DNA of 30,130 bases, taken from IMG/VR virus record IMGVR_UViG_3300043185_000109, positions 1-30,130 of that record; one strand, written 5' to 3'. Origin of the DNA: a virus (lineage: Duplodnaviria; Caudoviricetes). The translations under genes were made by a program, and so were the position numbers. The notes under the pieces were generated by a model. The model had not been told where the DNA came from, did not search any database, and saw only the letters and a list, made by a program, of their open reading frames with translations. Shown piece after piece: positions 2,673-29,506 of the stretch. How positions within the stretch are numbered: position 1 is the first letter of the stretch; each line of letters opens with the position of its first letter.

Positions 2673-3866
2673 TTATCTCGGCTGGACGGCAATCAGCGGC
2701 GCCGGCACGCGCTGGTCATACCACGTGCGCGCCTTCGGCCAGAGCATCATTTTCACGGCTACCCCCTCGGCGGTCGCGCCAATGTGCGTGTAATGCTCCT
2801 GCGGATCAATACCGATATTCCAAACCTGATTGGGTGAAGCAGATAAGGTCGGCGCATAGACACGGTAGAGGTCGCCATTTATCTCCTGCTCGATACAGAG
2901 CAGGCTCTTATACGTCTCACACGCATACTCCCGCCATTGGCCGTGTCCGCCGTTTTCGCAGAGCGAACGAAAGCTCATCGTATCGAACGTCGGTGCGTTA
3001 GCGGGTAACGGCAGCTCGGCGAAATCCAGAATCGTCGGGTACATGTCTGCCTGTGACACCAATGCGCGAGACCGCCAGCCTGACGGGATTGTGGGGCCGT
3101 TGATAATGATGGGCGTCCGCATCCCGTCGTCGCGGTGATTGTACTTGCTCTGGTCAAGAAGATTTCCGTTGTCCGTGAGCACGATAACGACGGTGGTGGT
3201 GCGGAGTCCGGTTTGGTCAAGGAACGCCACCGCTTCGCCGACGCGCGCATCGAACCAGGAGACCATGCCAAGGTAGCGTTGCGCCTCCAACTTGCTGTTA
3301 CGCAACGCGCCAAACGGCAGACTCGCGACCGCTTGAGCAGAGATGCCGTCGTAGAGCGCCTTGTATTGCGCGGGCGGCGTGTAGGGAGAATGGGGGAGAG
3401 GCATCGCGGCAAACGCCACGAACTGCCGGGCGTGGGCCTGACAGTCGCTCATGAACGCAAGCAACGGCTGGATGCCGTTGGCGTCGCGTGCGAACTCCCA
3501 ATCCATGCCGCCGCCGTGGTCGGTGAAGGCCGTCTCAATGCTCCCGCGCCACCACTTGCCTCGATGAAACGTGCGCCAGTCCGGAGCATGGGCATTGAGA
3601 GCGGTGGACCAGAGCGAATACGAGTTGACAATGTCCGAGGTCCGGATATCGTGCTGATGCAGCCCGGTCATCAGCGAATCAATAGACTGTTCACAAACGG
3701 CGGCGCAGGCGTGTGAGTGCTCGAACAAGCCGCCCCCCGCTGCTAGCGCGTCCATGTGCGGCGTAAGTGTGACCCCCGCACCCTGCATGTATGAGGCGAG
3801 ACAGGGCTGCATGTAACCGGCGTAAGGCCAGCCGTGGTCGTCGGAGTAAAGTAGTAAAATGTTCAT
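2673..3866 (-). CDS. Sulfatase-like hydrolase (alkaline phosphatase superfamily)
   Basis: NILLLYSDDHGW, TPHMDALA, AVCEQSIDSLMTG (canonical CxPxR-x4-TG position), GKWW, PHSPY, WFDARVG, LTDNG, K...GMRTPIII, VSQADMYPTILD, DPQE. Start placed at 3866; 3890 is an alternative. Confidence 0.9.
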   Translation of the reverse strand: MNILLLYSDDHGWPYAGYMQPCLASYMQGAGVTLTPHMDALAAGGGLFEHSHACAAVCEQSIDSLMTGLHQHDIRTSDIVNSYSLWSTALNAHAPDWRTFHRGKWWRGSIETAFTDHGGGMDWEFARDANGIQPLLAFMSDCQAHARQFVAFAAMPLPHSPYTPPAQYKALYDGISAQAVASLPFGALRNSKLEAQRYLGMVSWFDARVGEAVAFLDQTGLRTTTVVIVLTDNGNLLDQSKYNHRDDGMRTPIIINGPTIPSGWRSRALVSQADMYPTILDFAELPLPANAPTFDTMSFRSLCENGGHGQWREYACETYKSLLCIEQEINGDLYRVYAPTLSASPNQVWNIGIDPQEHYTHIGATAEGVAVKMMLWPKARTWYDQRVPAPLIAVQPR

Positions 3867-3925
3867 CTCGTTGTCTTCCGCGCCATCCATGGCCCGTACT
3901 GCATGGTAGAGTTGAGCGCCTGTTG

Positions 3926-22539: not shown

Positions 22540-24201
22540 TCAGACTCCTCGTATTTCAGCGGTCGACACGCGGGACGGAGTATGGAGACAGCGATACCGG
22601 AGGCAATCGGCAAGATGGTCTTCCGCGCCTGGCTCGATGTCATCGGCGTTGCGAACATCACGGTTGAGCAAGGGTAACGTGCGAATCAATTGGGGACACA
22701 CAGCGAAGATAAACAGCCCCGGAGCCTCCATCGGCGTCTGGTTCGAGGCAACGAGGCGGTCATAAATATGTTTCCATCCCGTCACCCGAGAGCCGGGACG
22801 TTTATCCGCGGCGAGCCACTGCACCCCGTACGGCGCCATGTCAGCGGCAATCGTTTTCCCCTCGTTCGACACATTGAAAATTTGCGTATCAGCCGGACCC
22901 GGATGGACGTTGATTTTTATGCCGCGGAACTTGTCATCCATCGCTCGTATCCGCTGACCTATGCCCGCATTCGTAAGCCGCAAGCCTTCGTTCGGTCGCC
23001 CGTTCCAGCCGTAGTCTTCGGCAATCACGAAGAGCGTACCCTTCGGCCAATAACGTTTCACGCCGCTTGCCGTTTCCACCTCTTCGCCGTTACTCTCCGC
23101 CATCCACAACGTCGCAAACGGCGAAGAAGATCCCCAATCAAACGCCCGGTCAACCCACCAGCTCGCGGGGAGGGGGAACGGCGGCAGAATGTGGACACTC
23201 TCATGAAAGACATCTGCGTACATCTTGCCGTGCATGGAGGATTTTTCGTGCTGGTACTCGGCCAGAAACGGGCGCACGCCTATGTCGTTCGCAATCTCTT
23301 GCAGGCGCGGAAGAGGCAAACCCGACCAAGTCGATTCCCCGCCTGTGATGACCATGTGGTGCCGCGCCGCGACCTCGTCATAGCGCACCTCGTAGGTCAG
23401 GTTGCGGATCGCGGGATAGGGGCCACAGACCGTGCGGGTTGAGAGAAACTCCGCGCGCCCGTCCGCCAAACGGGAGAAGACGGAATTGTCATGGATGAGA
23501 TTTTGAACGGCCAGCACGGCGACATGAGGGGCGCCGGCAGGGATGACTTTTCTGGTAACCGTCGCAATTTTTTTCTCGACGCGGAACGGGGAATCAGATT
23601 CGTTGTCAATATCGTCGAGGATGATGAAGTCCGGGCGGTGTTCTTCCAGTTTCTTCCCTCGGCTCGCGACATCGAGACCTAGTGCGTCCACGATGAATCC
23701 CGCGCGCGTCCACACCCGGTTCCGGCGCCAGGCTCGAGGGTTGCCAAATTTACCGACACGCCGGTCGGAGAGATGCGGGTAGCGCAAGGCGATCTGTGGG
23801 GATTCCAACAGACCCGCGATGTTTTGTACGTGGTCATCGCTCTGTTCTTGCGTCTCGCAGACGTACCAGACGTAGCGCCGGACCTGCCGGGCGGCGAGCG
23901 CCACGCTGGCGGCTTCCGTGTTGGTCGACTTCCCGCTCCCCCTTGACCAGATAGCAACGAACGGGTCGGGTCGGGTTCGCAGTTCGATGGACCACACCCA
24001 CTCCCACATTTCCTCATGGAAGTCGGCGAACGGCGCCGTGAAATGATCGGGAAAGAGCGTGGTAAGCCACTCATACCATCCCGGCGCGTCATCGAGATCG
24101 GTCAGGTGGTCTTCAGGCCGCAGACCGAGATTGATAAGCGAGCGACATAGCTCGATCGAATTCGGCTTGGATGTTGGCGCGGGTCTCACGGTCGATAACA
24201 T
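22540..24201 (-). CDS. terL: Terminase large subunit
   Basis: Walker A SRGSGKST, Walker B FIILDD, RNase H-like nuclease DWGSSSP and EDHLADCLRY. Start codon uncertain. Confidence 0.93.
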   Translation of the reverse strand: MLSTVRPAPTSKPNSIELCRSLINLGLRPEDHLTDLDDAPGWYEWLTTLFPDHFTAPFADFHEEMWEWVWSIELRTRPDPFVAIWSRGSGKSTNTEAASVALAARQVRRYVWYVCETQEQSDDHVQNIAGLLESPQIALRYPHLSDRRVGKFGNPRAWRRNRVWTRAGFIVDALGLDVASRGKKLEEHRPDFIILDDIDNESDSPFRVEKKIATVTRKVIPAGAPHVAVLAVQNLIHDNSVFSRLADGRAEFLSTRTVCGPYPAIRNLTYEVRYDEVAARHHMVITGGESTWSGLPLPRLQEIANDIGVRPFLAEYQHEKSSMHGKMYADVFHESVHILPPFPLPASWWVDRAFDWGSSSPFATLWMAESNGEEVETASGVKRYWPKGTLFVIAEDYGWNGRPNEGLRLTNAGIGQRIRAMDDKFRGIKINVHPGPADTQIFNVSNEGKTIAADMAPYGVQWLAADKRPGSRVTGWKHIYDRLVASNQTPMEAPGLFIFAVCPQLIRTLPLLNRDVRNADDIEPGAEDHLADCLRYRCLHTPSRVSTAEIRGV

Positions 24202-24751
24202 ATTTCACAATCGCAGCTAGCAAGGTCGTCATAATAAAGTTAAGCTGATCCATGGGGATACTGTGTTGCAGCTCCATGGTGCGCTTGCGTTGGCTCTCCA
24301 CGAGACGTTGCGTGCGATCGACCTGCCTGCCGACATCTTCCCACGCCGCATAGTCGCTCGCGCCGCGCTGAATCAGCTGCCCGAGTGCGGTAATCACGGC
24401 CAATTGTTCCTCCCCGTTTTTTGCCTGTGTGAGGTCGCCAAAGGTCCGTTGCAGCTCCCGCCAGAGATGACTTGATTCACCTGTGTCAACTCGTTTGACG
24501 AGGTCGACGGCGCGCGCGCGCACAAGGGAAAGTTCATCGTCAAGTTCAAGGCGTTGCGGGTCGATCAAGTACTCGTGATAGTCCGCCATAATACGGGTCG
24601 GGAGATGACGAGAAAACCGCCCGTGTTTGAAGTGCGGAGACGCGATGCCTTGCGGCGTCGCGCCGCCGTGGCGCTCGCATTTTTCCCGGCCTTTGACGGC
24701 ATATTTGCCGCACGGTTTTTTATCGCCCGAGCGATGGGCATTACACCGCAT
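24113..24751 (-). CDS. Terminase small subunit-like protein (HGGxSTG-type N-terminus)
   Basis: C.A.....PC...A......C..HGGATP.G...KHGRFS followed by a helical region; directly upstream of TerL. Confidence 0.75.
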   Translation of the reverse strand: MRCNAHRSGDKKPCGKYAVKGREKCERHGGATPQGIASPHFKHGRFSRHLPTRIMADYHEYLIDPQRLELDDELSLVRARAVDLVKRVDTGESSHLWRELQRTFGDLTQAKNGEEQLAVITALGQLIQRGASDYAAWEDVGRQVDRTQRLVESQRKRTMELQHSIPMDQLNFIMTTLLAAIVKYVIDRETRANIQAEFDRAMSLAYQSRSAA

Positions 24752-24753
24752 GA

Positions 24754-25059
24754 TTATGCCGCCCGACGCGCACGTTTCGTCCGGCGCGTGGCGGCTCCAG
24801 CCCGACGCGCACGTTCCGCCCGGCGCGCGACGGCTCCAGTCCGACGAACGGCGCCGCCGCGACCAGCCGCGACCGTGGCCCGGACCCGTTCACGACTGGC
24901 CGCCACGCGCTCGGCAAGGGATCGTCGGGCAGGTTTCCCTGCCCGTTCGCGCTCGGCGCGCTTCAGTTTTATGGTGCGCTTTGCTTTCGCAACGGCGGCG
25001 CGCAGTTTCTTCCCGCTGATTTTCCCCCCGCCGACGAATCCGTGACAGTGTGCATCCAT
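24754..25059 (-). CDS. Protamine/histone H1-like Arg/Ala-rich small protein (101 aa)
   Basis: Strong SD AAGGAGAGG; 24 Arg + 9 Lys against 6 acidic residues (hand count); fills the gap between the radical SAM gene and terS. Confidence 0.8.
   Translation of the reverse strand: MDAHCHGFVGGGKISGKKLRAAVAKAKRTIKLKRAERERAGKPARRSLAERVAASRERVRATVAAGRGGAVRRTGAVARRAERARRAGAATRRTKRARRAA
24761..24846. repeat. Imperfect 39-bp tandem repeat (about 2.2 copies) in the Arg-rich gene
   Basis: Units 24761-24799 and 24800-24838; the protein repeat reads RRTGAVARRAERA / RRAGAATRRTKRA. Confidence 0.8.
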
Positions 25060-25069
25060 AACCTCTCCT

Positions 25070-26260
25070 TTACGAAAAATACTGAGCCGCGTCGAGAGTC
25101 GCCTCCGTACCGAACCCGGTTACACGAAAAATCAGATAGGGCATCTCATGCTCATCGACCACGACCTTGTCGTTCACGACCGGAAGCGCAAATTGTGGAA
25201 GCCGAACCGGACTATTCCCTACCTGTGGATCTTTCCACGCCCACGCAAGCAACTCCTTGTAGGTGCCGCGCGTCGGCACGACATACGTGCGCCACAACTC
25301 CCGATTCCCACTGCCGAGGTAGTCTCGCGTGTAGTAGTCGCCCTGCGGTAACTCCGGCAGCAGGACATCGCAAAAATCATCGAACGAGACCACAGGATCG
25401 TCTTCCTTGACATTGTCAACACACCAATTCAGGAAATCCGCCATCACCGGAAAGACTTTCGGGTAGGTGGCCCGATAGACCTCGAAGAGATCGGTTTGCG
25501 TGGGGAACGAATTGGAATAGACGGCAAGACCGGCATCGTCAAGCATGTCCATCGCGTCCAACACGGGACCGATGTCTTTGTGCAGTTGCAACCCTGACGC
25601 AATGACCTCCGGGCCGAGCGCCGTTTTCTCACGCGGCGTCATGGCGGCGACTTGGCGTCGATTGAAGTGCATGCCCTGCACCCACACGCCCCAGACGCCG
25701 AGCGCCGACCAGCACCGTGCATGGTCGGCGAGGTCGGGCATCCACTCGGGCACGTAGGGATTCAGCCCGACAATGACATGGTGCCCTTTGTCTCGTAGTT
25801 TTTCGAGCAAGGTATAACGATGCGGGAGTGAGGTGGCGCCGGGTTCGATGCAGCGCCGTAACGTATCGTCGCTTTGGTTGATGGAGAGATACCACACGGA
25901 CGGTGGAAGAAACGACAAGAGTTCGTCTTCGTTCCGTCCACCTCGCGATTGTATACTCAGAGGAATACCGAGTTCGACTAACGTGCGAAGCAACGGGATT
26001 GCTTGCTGATCGTTACTGTTCGCGAGCGGGTCTGATCGGTTCGAGACGGCCACGGGATAGCCCTGTTGGAGCAGGGACGCGGTCAACGTCTGGCGTTCGG
26101 GAAATTCAGCCAGGAGGCGCATGATACGGGGCATATCCGCCACACGGTGCGGCGTGCCCAGATTGGCAAAGCAATACGAGCAGCCCATTGAACAGCGGTT
26201 CAGCGAGAGCTCAAGGCCGCATGGAGAACTCAGCAACTCCCCGGAAAAAGGAACGATCAT
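25070..26260 (-). CDS. Radical SAM enzyme, spore photoproduct lyase (SPL)-like
   Basis: CSMGCSYCF (CxxxCxYC), SDP, EPGA.S...R and NP..P motifs of SPL-like proteins; ATG 26260 overlaps the ParB-like stop (ATGA); GGGAGGG SD; 396 aa. Confidence 0.88.
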   Translation of the reverse strand: MIVPFSGELLSSPCGLELSLNRCSMGCSYCFANLGTPHRVADMPRIMRLLAEFPERQTLTASLLQQGYPVAVSNRSDPLANSNDQQAIPLLRTLVELGIPLSIQSRGGRNEDELLSFLPPSVWYLSINQSDDTLRRCIEPGATSLPHRYTLLEKLRDKGHHVIVGLNPYVPEWMPDLADHARCWSALGVWGVWVQGMHFNRRQVAAMTPREKTALGPEVIASGLQLHKDIGPVLDAMDMLDDAGLAVYSNSFPTQTDLFEVYRATYPKVFPVMADFLNWCVDNVKEDDPVVSFDDFCDVLLPELPQGDYYTRDYLGSGNRELWRTYVVPTRGTYKELLAWAWKDPQVGNSPVRLPQFALPVVNDKVVVDEHEMPYLIFRVTGFGTEATLDAAQYFS

Positions 26261-26949
26261 GCCCCGTCCCTCCCAGCAAACAGATTGACAAAAGCAGACG
26301 TATCCGAGGAGACCCCGAGCTGTTCCTTGTAGGCGTCCCAGTCGCGTTTCTGCGCATTCGTCAGCACGACAGAGAGCGGATGTCGCGCCTGGTCGGCGGG
26401 GGGAGTTCCCTGCCACGGCCTGGCGCCGTCGGGAGGCTCCTCGTCAAGCAAAAAAGGCATGGCCTGCTTCGGGTGTAAGGCCGACTTCAGTTCCGTCTCG
26501 TCCCACATCAGCGTTAAGTCAATCTCCGTCGCCAGACACTGCAACACGGCAGGATCAAAGGACAGGTTGACTTGTGCAATGCGATTGGCGGCAAGTGCAA
26601 TCTGCTTCGCGCGCGGGTCTTGTGCGCTCGGAATGTCGGTGCGCACTTCGACGATAGGGCGTGTGCCGTCATGTTCGAGGACAATAGCCTCGTCGGGGAA
26701 CAGCAGCGCCGATTTTTCGATGCGCGCCGAGCCGTCGATGATGTTCCCATTCGCCGCTGCCGTCATGCCGTCAAAGAAGCCATTGCGACGCATGGACTCC
26801 TCAAGCATGACCATACCGCGCTCCGTGTGGCGGTTCGTATTCTCCGCTTGCGGAATAAACTTGGAGAGTTTATCAATCTTGAGACGAGGCGGCGCGCGCT
26901 CCATGTCGTCGCTCACCCGTGGCGTATTCTCTTCCGTTCTCTGTGTCAT
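26257..26949 (-). CDS. ParB/sulfiredoxin-like N-terminal domain protein
   Basis: N.NRH...LEESMRRNGF...IIDGSAR...LAANRI matches the phage ParB-N pattern (N..H...L..SI..FGF...IIxGxxR...ADNR). Confidence 0.72.
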   Translation of the reverse strand: MTQRTEENTPRVSDDMERAPPRLKIDKLSKFIPQAENTNRHTERGMVMLEESMRRNGFFDGMTAAANGNIIDGSARIEKSALLFPDEAIVLEHDGTRPIVEVRTDIPSAQDPRAKQIALAANRIAQVNLSFDPAVLQCLATEIDLTLMWDETELKSALHPKQAMPFLLDEEPPDGARPWQGTPPADQARHPLSVVLTNAQKRDWDAYKEQLGVSSDTSAFVNLFAGRDGA

Positions 26950-27210: not shown

Positions 27211-27422
27211 ATACCTCTTCACGATACCTCTTCACATACCTCTTCACGTGCACACACACGGGAAGAGGTACGTACTCTCTCTCTTATAAATCTACATCAT
27301 AATAATTATAATATATATATATTATATACTTAGCTTATGTGAGTGAATGTAAACCATCACTCGGGTACGAACGCACGCAGACGTGAAGAGGTAAGGCGTG
27401 AAGAGGTAAACGTGAAGAGGTT
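27211..27422. repeat. Putative replication origin: inverted iteron arrays around an AT-rich core
   Basis: ATACCTCTTCAC at 27211, 27224, 27236; reverse-oriented CGTGAAGAGGT at 27382, 27397, 27411 plus a variant at 27259; AT-only palindrome at 27307-27326. Confidence 0.75.
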
Positions 27423-28753: not shown

Positions 28754-28895
28754 CCGCCTCTTTCTCCGTGCGTTTGAGATAGCGGTCAATGGCGCGGCGG
28801 ATGAGTTCCGCGCGCGGGGCGCCCGTTTTCTTCTTGACATCCTCAAGCAACGCCAGTTGCCGAGGCTCTAAATCCAGGATGATTGCTTTTTTCAT
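28725..28895 (-). CDS. Ribbon-helix-helix (CopG-like) regulator
   Basis: MKKAIILDLEPRQLALLEDVKKKTGAPRAELIRRAIDRYL is a typical RHH pattern. Confidence 0.85.
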   Translation of the reverse strand: MKKAIILDLEPRQLALLEDVKKKTGAPRAELIRRAIDRYLKRTEKEADDGRARQRR

Positions 28896-28901
28896 ACGAC
28901 G

Positions 28902-28931
28902 AAGATATACATAGATATCCTTTTGCGTCAA
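28902..28931 (-). promoter_or_regulatory. Putative promoter for the RHH-replication operon (leaderless transcript)
   Basis: TTGACG-18 nt-TATCTT, then 6 nt to ATG 28895. Confidence 0.55.
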
Positions 28932-28945
28932 GAGAGGCTCTGGGT

Positions 28946-29506
28946 ATGCGTCAAGAACTGCTTGATTTTTTCTCCGACCTGCTCACGCGGCATGTGCGTC
29001 GTCTCGTCCAACGCGGTGAGAAACTGACCGGCTTGTGTCCGTTCCATGCCGAACAGACCCCGAGCTTTACGGCGCATCTCGGCAAAGGCGTCTATTATTG
29101 TTTCGGGTGCGGCGCCGGCGGCGGCGTGGCCGCCTTCGCCACAGCCGTCGGTGAGCCGCTCCCCTGGCGTCGACGCGATTCCCCGCTCCCCGACCTGGTC
29201 GTTCTGCGGCGCCGCTTGCACCACGCCGCCACGCAGGAGTTTCGCGCATGGAAGGCGGAGAAACGCCTTGACGCGGTAGCAGACTTCGCCGCTGCGGAGG
29301 CCGCGCTCCGCAGCCTCGCCGCGTGCTTTCGCTTTGCCTTCCCCCCCGCCGACCAGGCGCGGCTCCACCGTCTGATGGACGAGCAGGGCGCCGCGCTGCT
29401 CGACGCGATTGACCGCTTTGATCGATATGATCTGAATCCGCTGCTGGACGACGCGGCGGCGCAGCGGGAATGGGTCGACGAACGGACCGCCCTGGAGCGA
29501 CGATAG
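28946..29506 (+). CDS. CHC2 zinc-finger protein (DnaG-type zinc-binding domain without TOPRIM)
   Basis: GLCPFHAEQTPSF...YYCFGCGAGG; GAGAGG SD before ATG 28946; short helical C-terminus. Confidence 0.85.
   Translation: MRQELLDFFSDLLTRHVRRLVQRGEKLTGLCPFHAEQTPSFTAHLGKGVYYCFGCGAGGGVAAFATAVGEPLPWRRRDSPLPDLVVLRRRLHHAATQEFRAWKAEKRLDAVADFAAAEAALRSLAACFRFAFPPADQARLHRLMDEQGAALLDAIDRFDRYDLNPLLDDAAAQREWVDERTALERR

Follow-up and report, generated by a model that had tools for sequence, protein, structure and literature searches.

Closest described systems

Several described systems resemble parts of a three-gene module, encoding a ParB-like protein, a radical S-adenosylmethionine (SAM) enzyme and a small, very basic protein, that stands ahead of the packaging genes in the virus record IMGVR_UViG_3300043185_000109. 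The stretch analysed, hereafter the window, is a 30-kb IMG/VR record (30,130 nt) estimated to be 37% complete. The closest characterised homologue of the enzyme that was found, a distant one, is gp53 of phage M6, which converts glycinyl-thymine in DNA into an isomer with a C-C link; a radical at the glycine C-alpha is put forward as a speculation in that study (PMC8989533). The bond thus formed in phage DNA joins thymine to the glycine C-alpha; the substrate, however, is an adduct of free glycine that a kinase and a transferase build on hydroxymethyl-U DNA, and no tagged protein partners are described for gp53. Spore photoproduct lyase (SPL), which resembles the enzyme in fold and cluster motif, requires Cys140 as hydrogen donor for repair (PMC3467042). 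For the ParB-like protein, the nearest precedent is the ParB that activates phage thymine dioxygenases, which likewise combines a nucleotide-binding domain, a linker and a C-terminal domain with no obvious DNA-binding domain, and likewise lies beside a DNA-modifying enzyme, often near a terminase (PMC13229309). In that system activation depends on the C-terminal domain, a stable complex could not be captured, and 19% of the pathways have a terminase alongside; the enzyme is an Fe/2-oxoglutarate dioxygenase rather than a radical SAM enzyme, and the available text does not mention tagged cargo. Phage ParB folds are also often fused to methylases and to DUF4417 (bioRxiv 2025.10.10.680097).

Early-acting phage proteins are loaded and delivered by several known routes. 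The targeting of T4 internal proteins is one of them. Others are MuF or portal fusions and T4 Alt, and ADP-ribosyltransferase (ART), NUDIX and DdrB-like ParB domains belong to proteins for which packaging and injection are predicted (PMC5512222). The parts of the present module thus have precedents; for their combination, no paper was found in a literature search that was thin on subscription journals. What is new is that in relatives the small gene belongs to a set of genes sharing an N-terminal tag on unrelated protein bodies; such interchangeable cargo could not be recognised from a single window. This cargo is like the polyvalent or MuF-fused effectors and T4 Alt in its domain types (ART, NUDIX, DdrB-like ParB) and in its location among head genes, whereas here a tag of 8-10 residues and an enzyme replace the MuF or portal domain (PMC5512222). 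We tentatively favour the reading that the enzyme couples the glycine-rich tag to phage DNA for co-packaging, helped by the ParB-like protein.

A shared N-terminal tag on unrelated proteins

A first search with the enzyme returned 23 proteins and a subsequent profile search 331 clusters at E <= 1e-30, and the family exceeds 300 clusters at 50% identity. Loci were drawn from an IMG/VR DNA scan (best 80 of 245 relatives), from GTDB genomes (25 relatives in seven phyla) and from a metagenome scan (best 80 of 127 relatives). The 185 loci and the window formed 116 clusters at 80% identity, 110 of which score above 100 bits; one locus was used per cluster, with genes in the fetched loci called by a heuristic of our own. 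The original prediction had set co-occurrence of the three genes elsewhere as its test, and the module does recur. In 45 of 103 loci, counting the window, the gene directly 3' of the enzyme is either tag-like (an ATG gene with a Gly/Ala/Ser-rich basic start) or short and basic by criteria chosen post hoc; among control genes drawn from these loci, the figure is 2 of 254 (p 7e-26). A ParB-N domain is encoded within 2.5 kb in 60 of the 69 loci having at least 1.5 kb upstream (41/50 without the loci that seeded the model). A match to the terminase large subunit, TerL (E <= 1e-9), is present in 57 of 66 loci, the test having covered 76 of 133 long open reading frames (ORFs) from 66 of 72 eligible loci. 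Gene linkage, a tag common to otherwise unrelated proteins of one phage, effector-type cargo domains and homology to gp53 are the observed features of what we take to be a mobile late-gene module.

The commonest tag, in an alignment whose rows were picked for the motif, is Met-Ala-x-x-Gly-Gly-x-Trp; another recurring start is rich in Gly, Ser and Lys, and position 8 is Trp or Phe in most aligned tags. The strict form has 37 matches among 13,912 ATG starts (24/110 loci); every one shares the strand of the enzyme and falls between -3.3 and +2.4 kb. Tagged genes start 0-20 nt from the enzyme stop codon in many clades. Several phages carry two to four tagged copies, with a maximum of eight per genome. 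Paralogues within one phage have 7-10 of their first 10 residues in common, and in 18 of the 19 pairs tested no resemblance extends beyond residue 30, in sets that were picked by hand and from which three pairs of locus L165 with offset leaders and one too-short pair were set aside. In a provirus (G001), a fourth tagged gene sits with tail genes at a distance of about 11 kb and shows synonymous codon differences. On the enzyme tree (FastTree, automatic labels), the Trp class of tag requires 13 changes, as opposed to 19.5 when shuffled, a clustering that kinship alone can cause.

The bodies that follow the tag range from 29-residue basic tails to 750 residues. Pfam cut-offs were passed by 9 of 48 scanned cargo proteins (four ART, two NUDIX, two DdrB-ParB and one DnaJ), while seven gave weak matches and 32 none; one cargo protein matches the minor-head-protein family phrog_16619, and a Phage_Mu_F domain was found in none of 48 tagged or adjacent proteins. 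A scan of IMG/VR with the tag alone yielded 54 loci, most of them out-of-frame or internal chance matches, and both multi-copy contigs among them carry the enzyme. One contig found in this way, outside the 80 kept enzyme matches, encodes ParB, the enzyme (503 bits) and eight tagged proteins of 66-118 residues; as read from the sequence, four of these genes come right after the enzyme and the others between terminase-, portal- and capsid-like genes. In the eight-tag phage (L229:1700-7681), ORFs resembling glycosyltransferases, methyltransferases and epimerases were seen by eye between the MuF and capsid genes.

A cyanobacterial clade has a different kind of tag, in which a Gly-rich stretch, often with Cys as its first residue, comes after an acidic leader (L165:5074-8996, L178:4820-5800, L091, L159, L174 and L184), and leader cleavage possibly exposes an N-terminal Cys there. 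Small acidic ORFs lie directly after large cargo genes, in the manner of toxin-immunity pairs, at L130:4318-4569, L083:5237-5500, L141:1637-1822 and L120:2041-2256. Finally, two distant relatives from gut phages (L066:5938-7412, L075:5908-7436) lie among tail genes with an ORF that has a Gly-rich start, with no ParB in the printed neighbourhood.

The radical SAM enzyme and its relatives

The enzyme belongs to the radical SAM superfamily, as established by its cluster motif, its PF04055 match (30.9 bits, cut-off 29.5) and its fold. There is a single cluster motif, CxxxCxxC (Cys23, Cys27 and Cys30), and its three cysteines are invariant in 133/133 homologues. The AlphaFold2 (AF2) model, with a predicted local distance difference test (pLDDT) score of 91.6, best matches pyruvate formate-lyase (PFL)-activating enzyme (Z 17.6), followed by SPL (Z 15.9, root-mean-square deviation 3.2 over 233 residues) and viperin (Z 15.3), and Foldseek ranked several radical SAM folds near-equal. 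PFL-activating enzyme attacks a glycine in a peptide. A sequence search of the PDB with the enzyme gave nothing significant. Its family profile scores 69.5 bits against a PA0069-family protein, 51.5 against gp53 (at most 1.1 in 200 shuffles) and 15.8 against an SPL-family protein. Homology to gp53, which was recognised by the cluster motif printed in PMC8989533 and is likewise an SPL-like, single-cluster enzyme, covers about 250 residues, including a Ser-x-x-x-Asp-Pro-Phe motif.

The PA0069/Rv2578c family gives the best profile match (hhalign probability 98.6), although the window enzyme falls short of its NCBIfam cut-offs (19.3 vs 360 and 21.1 vs 430 bits). Unlike the phage enzyme, its members are chromosomal, SOS-linked genes: PA0069 is an SOS gene (bioRxiv 2022.03.14.484287) and Rv2578c is located at a LexA peak (PMC3381160). 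No function for this family was found in the literature search. Two enzyme homologues, P0048 and P0084, carry intein-like inserts of about 340 residues, seen by eye just before the third cysteine of the cluster motif, and an intein-containing Rv2578c model exists. The enzyme is present in two cultured strains, Oculatella sp. LEGE 06141 and Chitinophaga skermanii DSM 23857; a tblastn search (E 1e-5) of 50,697 GenBank phage records gave no match to it, a possible reason for its having gone unstudied.

The likeness to SPL lies in the fold and the cluster motif. The position of the hydrogen donor Cys140 corresponds to Asn74, as mapped through its Cys-Thr-Ser-Asp context and the PA0069 alignment (direct alignment to SPL being unreliable there), and it is Asn in 131/133 homologues. 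No other conserved cysteine that might donate hydrogen precedes residue 280 among the 133 homologues, and no upstream column reaches 20% Cys, as the alternative upstream cysteine of Clostridia SPL would. In addition, Phe replaces Tyr98 in 126/133, and the SPL model TIGR04070 found no candidate in the window, with a positive B. subtilis control. For the base-flipping hairpin, Arg304/Tyr305, the structural alignment to 4fhc stops at model residue 251. The assignment of the enzyme as an SPL was rejected on the Asn at the donor position and the TIGR04070 result, and with it a repair system of SPL and small acid-soluble proteins. The original prediction had also suggested a pair akin to those that make ribosomally synthesised and post-translationally modified peptides (RiPPs). 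The family resembles radical SAM RiPP systems in having an adjacent short gene with conserved sequence, a likeness that holds at family level, the window peptide being divergent. SPASM/Twitch cysteines were not found, the other cysteine columns being only 280 (84/133), 356 (40) and 350 (27); nor was an N-terminal RiPP recognition domain, the cluster motif beginning at residue 23 of the model.

The ParB-like partner and the packaging genes

The ParB-like protein consists of a ParB-N fold, an acidic linker and a conserved C-terminal domain, and an alignment with 23 neighbours from related loci shows no conserved middle domain of helix-turn-helix (HTH) type. A ParB-N fold with a C-terminal domain, no HTH and an adjoining enzyme is what is seen in ParB-type activators, and by analogy it may activate the enzyme. 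The C-terminal domain was found in 50/69 loci (31/50 without model-seeding loci); its model places helices at residues 16-29 and 34-47 after the extended segment, a pattern suggestive of a ribbon-helix-helix-like domain, and it likely serves in dimerisation or enzyme recruitment. Atlas matches to it were only to unnamed clusters, under 0.9. The domain also stands alone (L083, L130) and ends FtsK-like proteins (L137 at E 4e-27, L109 weakly, and L122, truncated and with no Pfam hit). In the latter three loci (L137:1-2097, L109:54-1316, L122:2-1063), the domain and an FtsK/SpoIIIE-like translocase precede the enzyme and a tagged gene; these short contigs are possibly mobile elements other than tailed phages. 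The best TerL matches span five PHROG families, and TerL was added later for L131, L145 and, weakly, L049. With five TerL families and the three FtsK-like loci, the tag tracks the enzyme and not a single packaging motor.

ParB-methyltransferase fusions and D12 methylases occur near the module in several loci. A distant relative, L067, sits beside a pyridoxal phosphate (PLP) enzyme gene whose M6 homologue immediately precedes gp53; the region L067:5420-8319, with ParB, the distant radical SAM enzyme, the PLP enzyme and probable terminase genes, is a possible M6-like base-modification cassette. The presumed M6 transferase and kinase, which were assigned from gene order in an unannotated record, gave no tblastn match in 186 sequences (the window, 37% complete, and the fetched loci), and the transferase was also not found in five longer records, of which only one is at least 90% complete.

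The basic protein of the window

The window's own small protein is 33% Arg+Lys and 25% Ala, with an isoelectric point (pI) of about 12; its first 12 residues are rich in His, Cys and Gly and are followed by an Ala/Arg/Lys tail. It had been called protamine-like, but its composition is rich in Ala, Arg and Lys, whereas protamines are marked by clusters of Arg. NCBIfam, Pfam and PHROGs scans gave no family assignment, and no paralogue sharing its tag was found among 1,039 ORF starts of the 37% complete record. It sits where relatives carry tagged cargo genes, and by position and composition it would appear to belong to the tagged set; its His/Cys/Gly start loosely resembles the cyanobacterial form of the tag. 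The expectation that a short ORF with a conserved Cys/Gly start follows the enzyme was borne out as regards a tag-like or short basic gene, but conservation does not extend to the His/Cys segment. A role for that segment as the conserved substrate throughout the family was rejected, for the recurring tag differs and the peptide lacks a homologue.

Proposed mechanism and alternatives

A bond between tag and DNA is suggested by an enzyme of DNA-linked lineage with a homologue that joins glycine and thymine, by a helper of a kind known to activate enzymes acting on DNA bases, and by partners that share only a glycine-rich N-terminus and bear the domains of injected effectors. Through its C-terminal domain, ParB would recruit the enzyme to DNA or activate it there, a role like the one that a ParB has with phage thymine dioxygenases. 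The 5'-deoxyadenosyl radical would then take a hydrogen from a tag glycine or from the thymine methyl, and tag and thymine would be joined. Tagged proteins would be packed with the genome and injected into the next host, where the cargo might act by ADP-ribosylation, nucleotide hydrolysis or DNA shielding; in the window, the cargo would amount to no more than a basic tail, serving to compact or mask the DNA. In its fullest form, which is more doubtful, the proposal is of a radical SAM "protein-to-DNA ligase" whose N-terminal tag of 8-10 residues staples any protein to genome thymines for packaging and injection, in FtsK-type mobile elements as well.

Several observations weigh against such coupling. 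The window enzyme is acidic (net charge -15, pI 5.0; family median net -4), a charge better matched to a basic peptide than to DNA, and the window's basic protein has neither a homologue nor the Trp tag. Over half of the loci (58/103) fail the tag or basic test; in some of these the gene lies upstream, is short or starts with a codon other than ATG. The tags are variable, and many lack an aromatic residue. A family of 358-residue proteins on three contigs begins with the tag pattern, with no family enzyme in the fetched flank. A folded cargo of 500-750 residues on DNA would hardly pass the portal channel, which would restrict attachment to unfolded cargo, to genome ends or to a step inside the capsid. 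M6 gp53, moreover, is an isomerase of a pre-made adduct and not a coupling enzyme (PMC8989533).

The acidic enzyme, the PFL-activating-enzyme-like fold and the portal problem keep two alternatives open. The enzyme may modify the tag only, by glycine C-alpha chemistry, Trp cross-linking, epimerisation or cleavage, so that the matured tag, a RiPP-like protein modification, is a non-covalent signal for capsid loading or stability. We consider this unlikely, yet it has in its favour the best fold match, the pairing of an acidic enzyme with basic substrates, the frequent Trp/Phe at position 8 and the clustering of tag class on the enzyme tree, subject to the effect of kinship. Against it stand the lack of SPASM/Twitch cysteines and of an N-terminal recognition domain, nearest sequence relatives that are DNA-linked, and a constant ParB or FtsK partner that it does not explain. 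Of the RiPP-like pair originally suggested, the version in which the peptide is linked to DNA comes closest to the coupling that we favour, but its HCHGFVGGG segment is not conserved. In another, rather unlikely, alternative, the ParB-activated enzyme adds a small group to a DNA base for anti-restriction, and the tag, like that of T4 internal proteins, is an independent capsid-targeting sequence that shares the operon. Packaging-linked DNA modification against restriction, which had been suggested at the outset, stays a live rival with a ParB helper precedent (PMC13229309), to which the methyltransferase fusions and D12 methylases may be added, as well as distant relatives (L067, L071, L072, L080) with ParB and no tagged gene. 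However, tagged genes abut the enzyme stop in many clades, the enzyme/tag pair is kept across five TerL families and also where ParB is not nearby (L145, and the distant L066 and L075 among tail genes), and the presumed M6 transferase and kinase went unmatched in the 186 sequences.

A spore-like protection, with the basic protein as a coat on virion DNA and repair of the thymine photoproduct by an SPL-like enzyme, had also been put forward, and both the second-best fold and the strong basicity of the window protein would fit it. We judge it highly improbable, given Asn74 at the position of the required cysteine (PMC3467042), with no other conserved cysteine before residue 280, the negative TIGR04070 result and cargo that often consists of enzymes, many partners being enzymes of 200-750 residues and not coats; a late, packaging-coupled position would also be ill-timed for repair after infection. 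Something else altogether is improbable. A brief tag that has its own enzyme to recognise it and that recurs on unrelated cargo proteins, up to eight times per genome, would be a new delivery route. If the bond is indeed to DNA, its formation would add a new reaction to radical SAM chemistry and provide a tool for sequence-programmable protein-DNA conjugation. A protein-to-DNA ligase, if real, would allow genetically programmable delivery of anti-host effectors and DNA-shielding peptides. Even under the rival explanations, an uncharacterised enzyme family of more than 300 clusters has been identified together with its likely substrates.

Gene layout of the window

The three genes and their spacing ahead of the packaging genes are as first described: the radical SAM start overlaps the ParB stop by ATGA on the minus strand, 10 nt follow before the basic ORF, and 2 nt separate the latter from the 212-residue ORF (Table 1). 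That ORF had been named terS; its place agrees with this, while family support is weak (NF041373, 18.9 bits vs a cut-off of 29), and the assignment is made from position. TerL, portal, MuF, scaffold and major capsid genes follow in that order (PHROGs). No sigma-70 promoter was found upstream.

Table 1. Coordinates of the module and its neighbours in the window
Feature	Position	Strand	Remarks
ParB-like gene	26257..26949	-	230 aa; phrog_620 E 6.5e-11
C-terminal domain of ParB (extended segment/helix/helix)	26260..26403	-	AF2 pLDDT 90.9
Radical SAM gene	25070..26260	-	396 aa from ATG 26260; PF04055
Spacer with GGAG-type ribosome-binding site for basic protein	25060..25069	-	10 nt; from sequence
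Basic ORF	24754..25059	-	101 aa; no homologue
39-nt tandem duplication lengthening basic tail	24761..24838		13 codons, 90% identical
Probable terminase small subunit	24113..24751	-	212 aa; by position, weak matches only
Terminase large subunit, start codon uncertain	22540..24201	-	phrog_38 E 6e-26

Upstream of ParB, the end of a primase/helicase-like DUF3987 gene (27234-27422) contains four 15-nt direct repeats and a 17-nt inverted repeat, together with an AT-rich palindrome (27303-27332), and the region is origin-like. A stand-alone ORF with a CHC2 zinc finger of primase type (28883-29506, plus strand) lies on the strand opposite to the DUF3987 gene. Finally, a sulfatase-family gene (2673-3890, minus strand; PF00884, E 1e-20) is located downstream of the tail genes.

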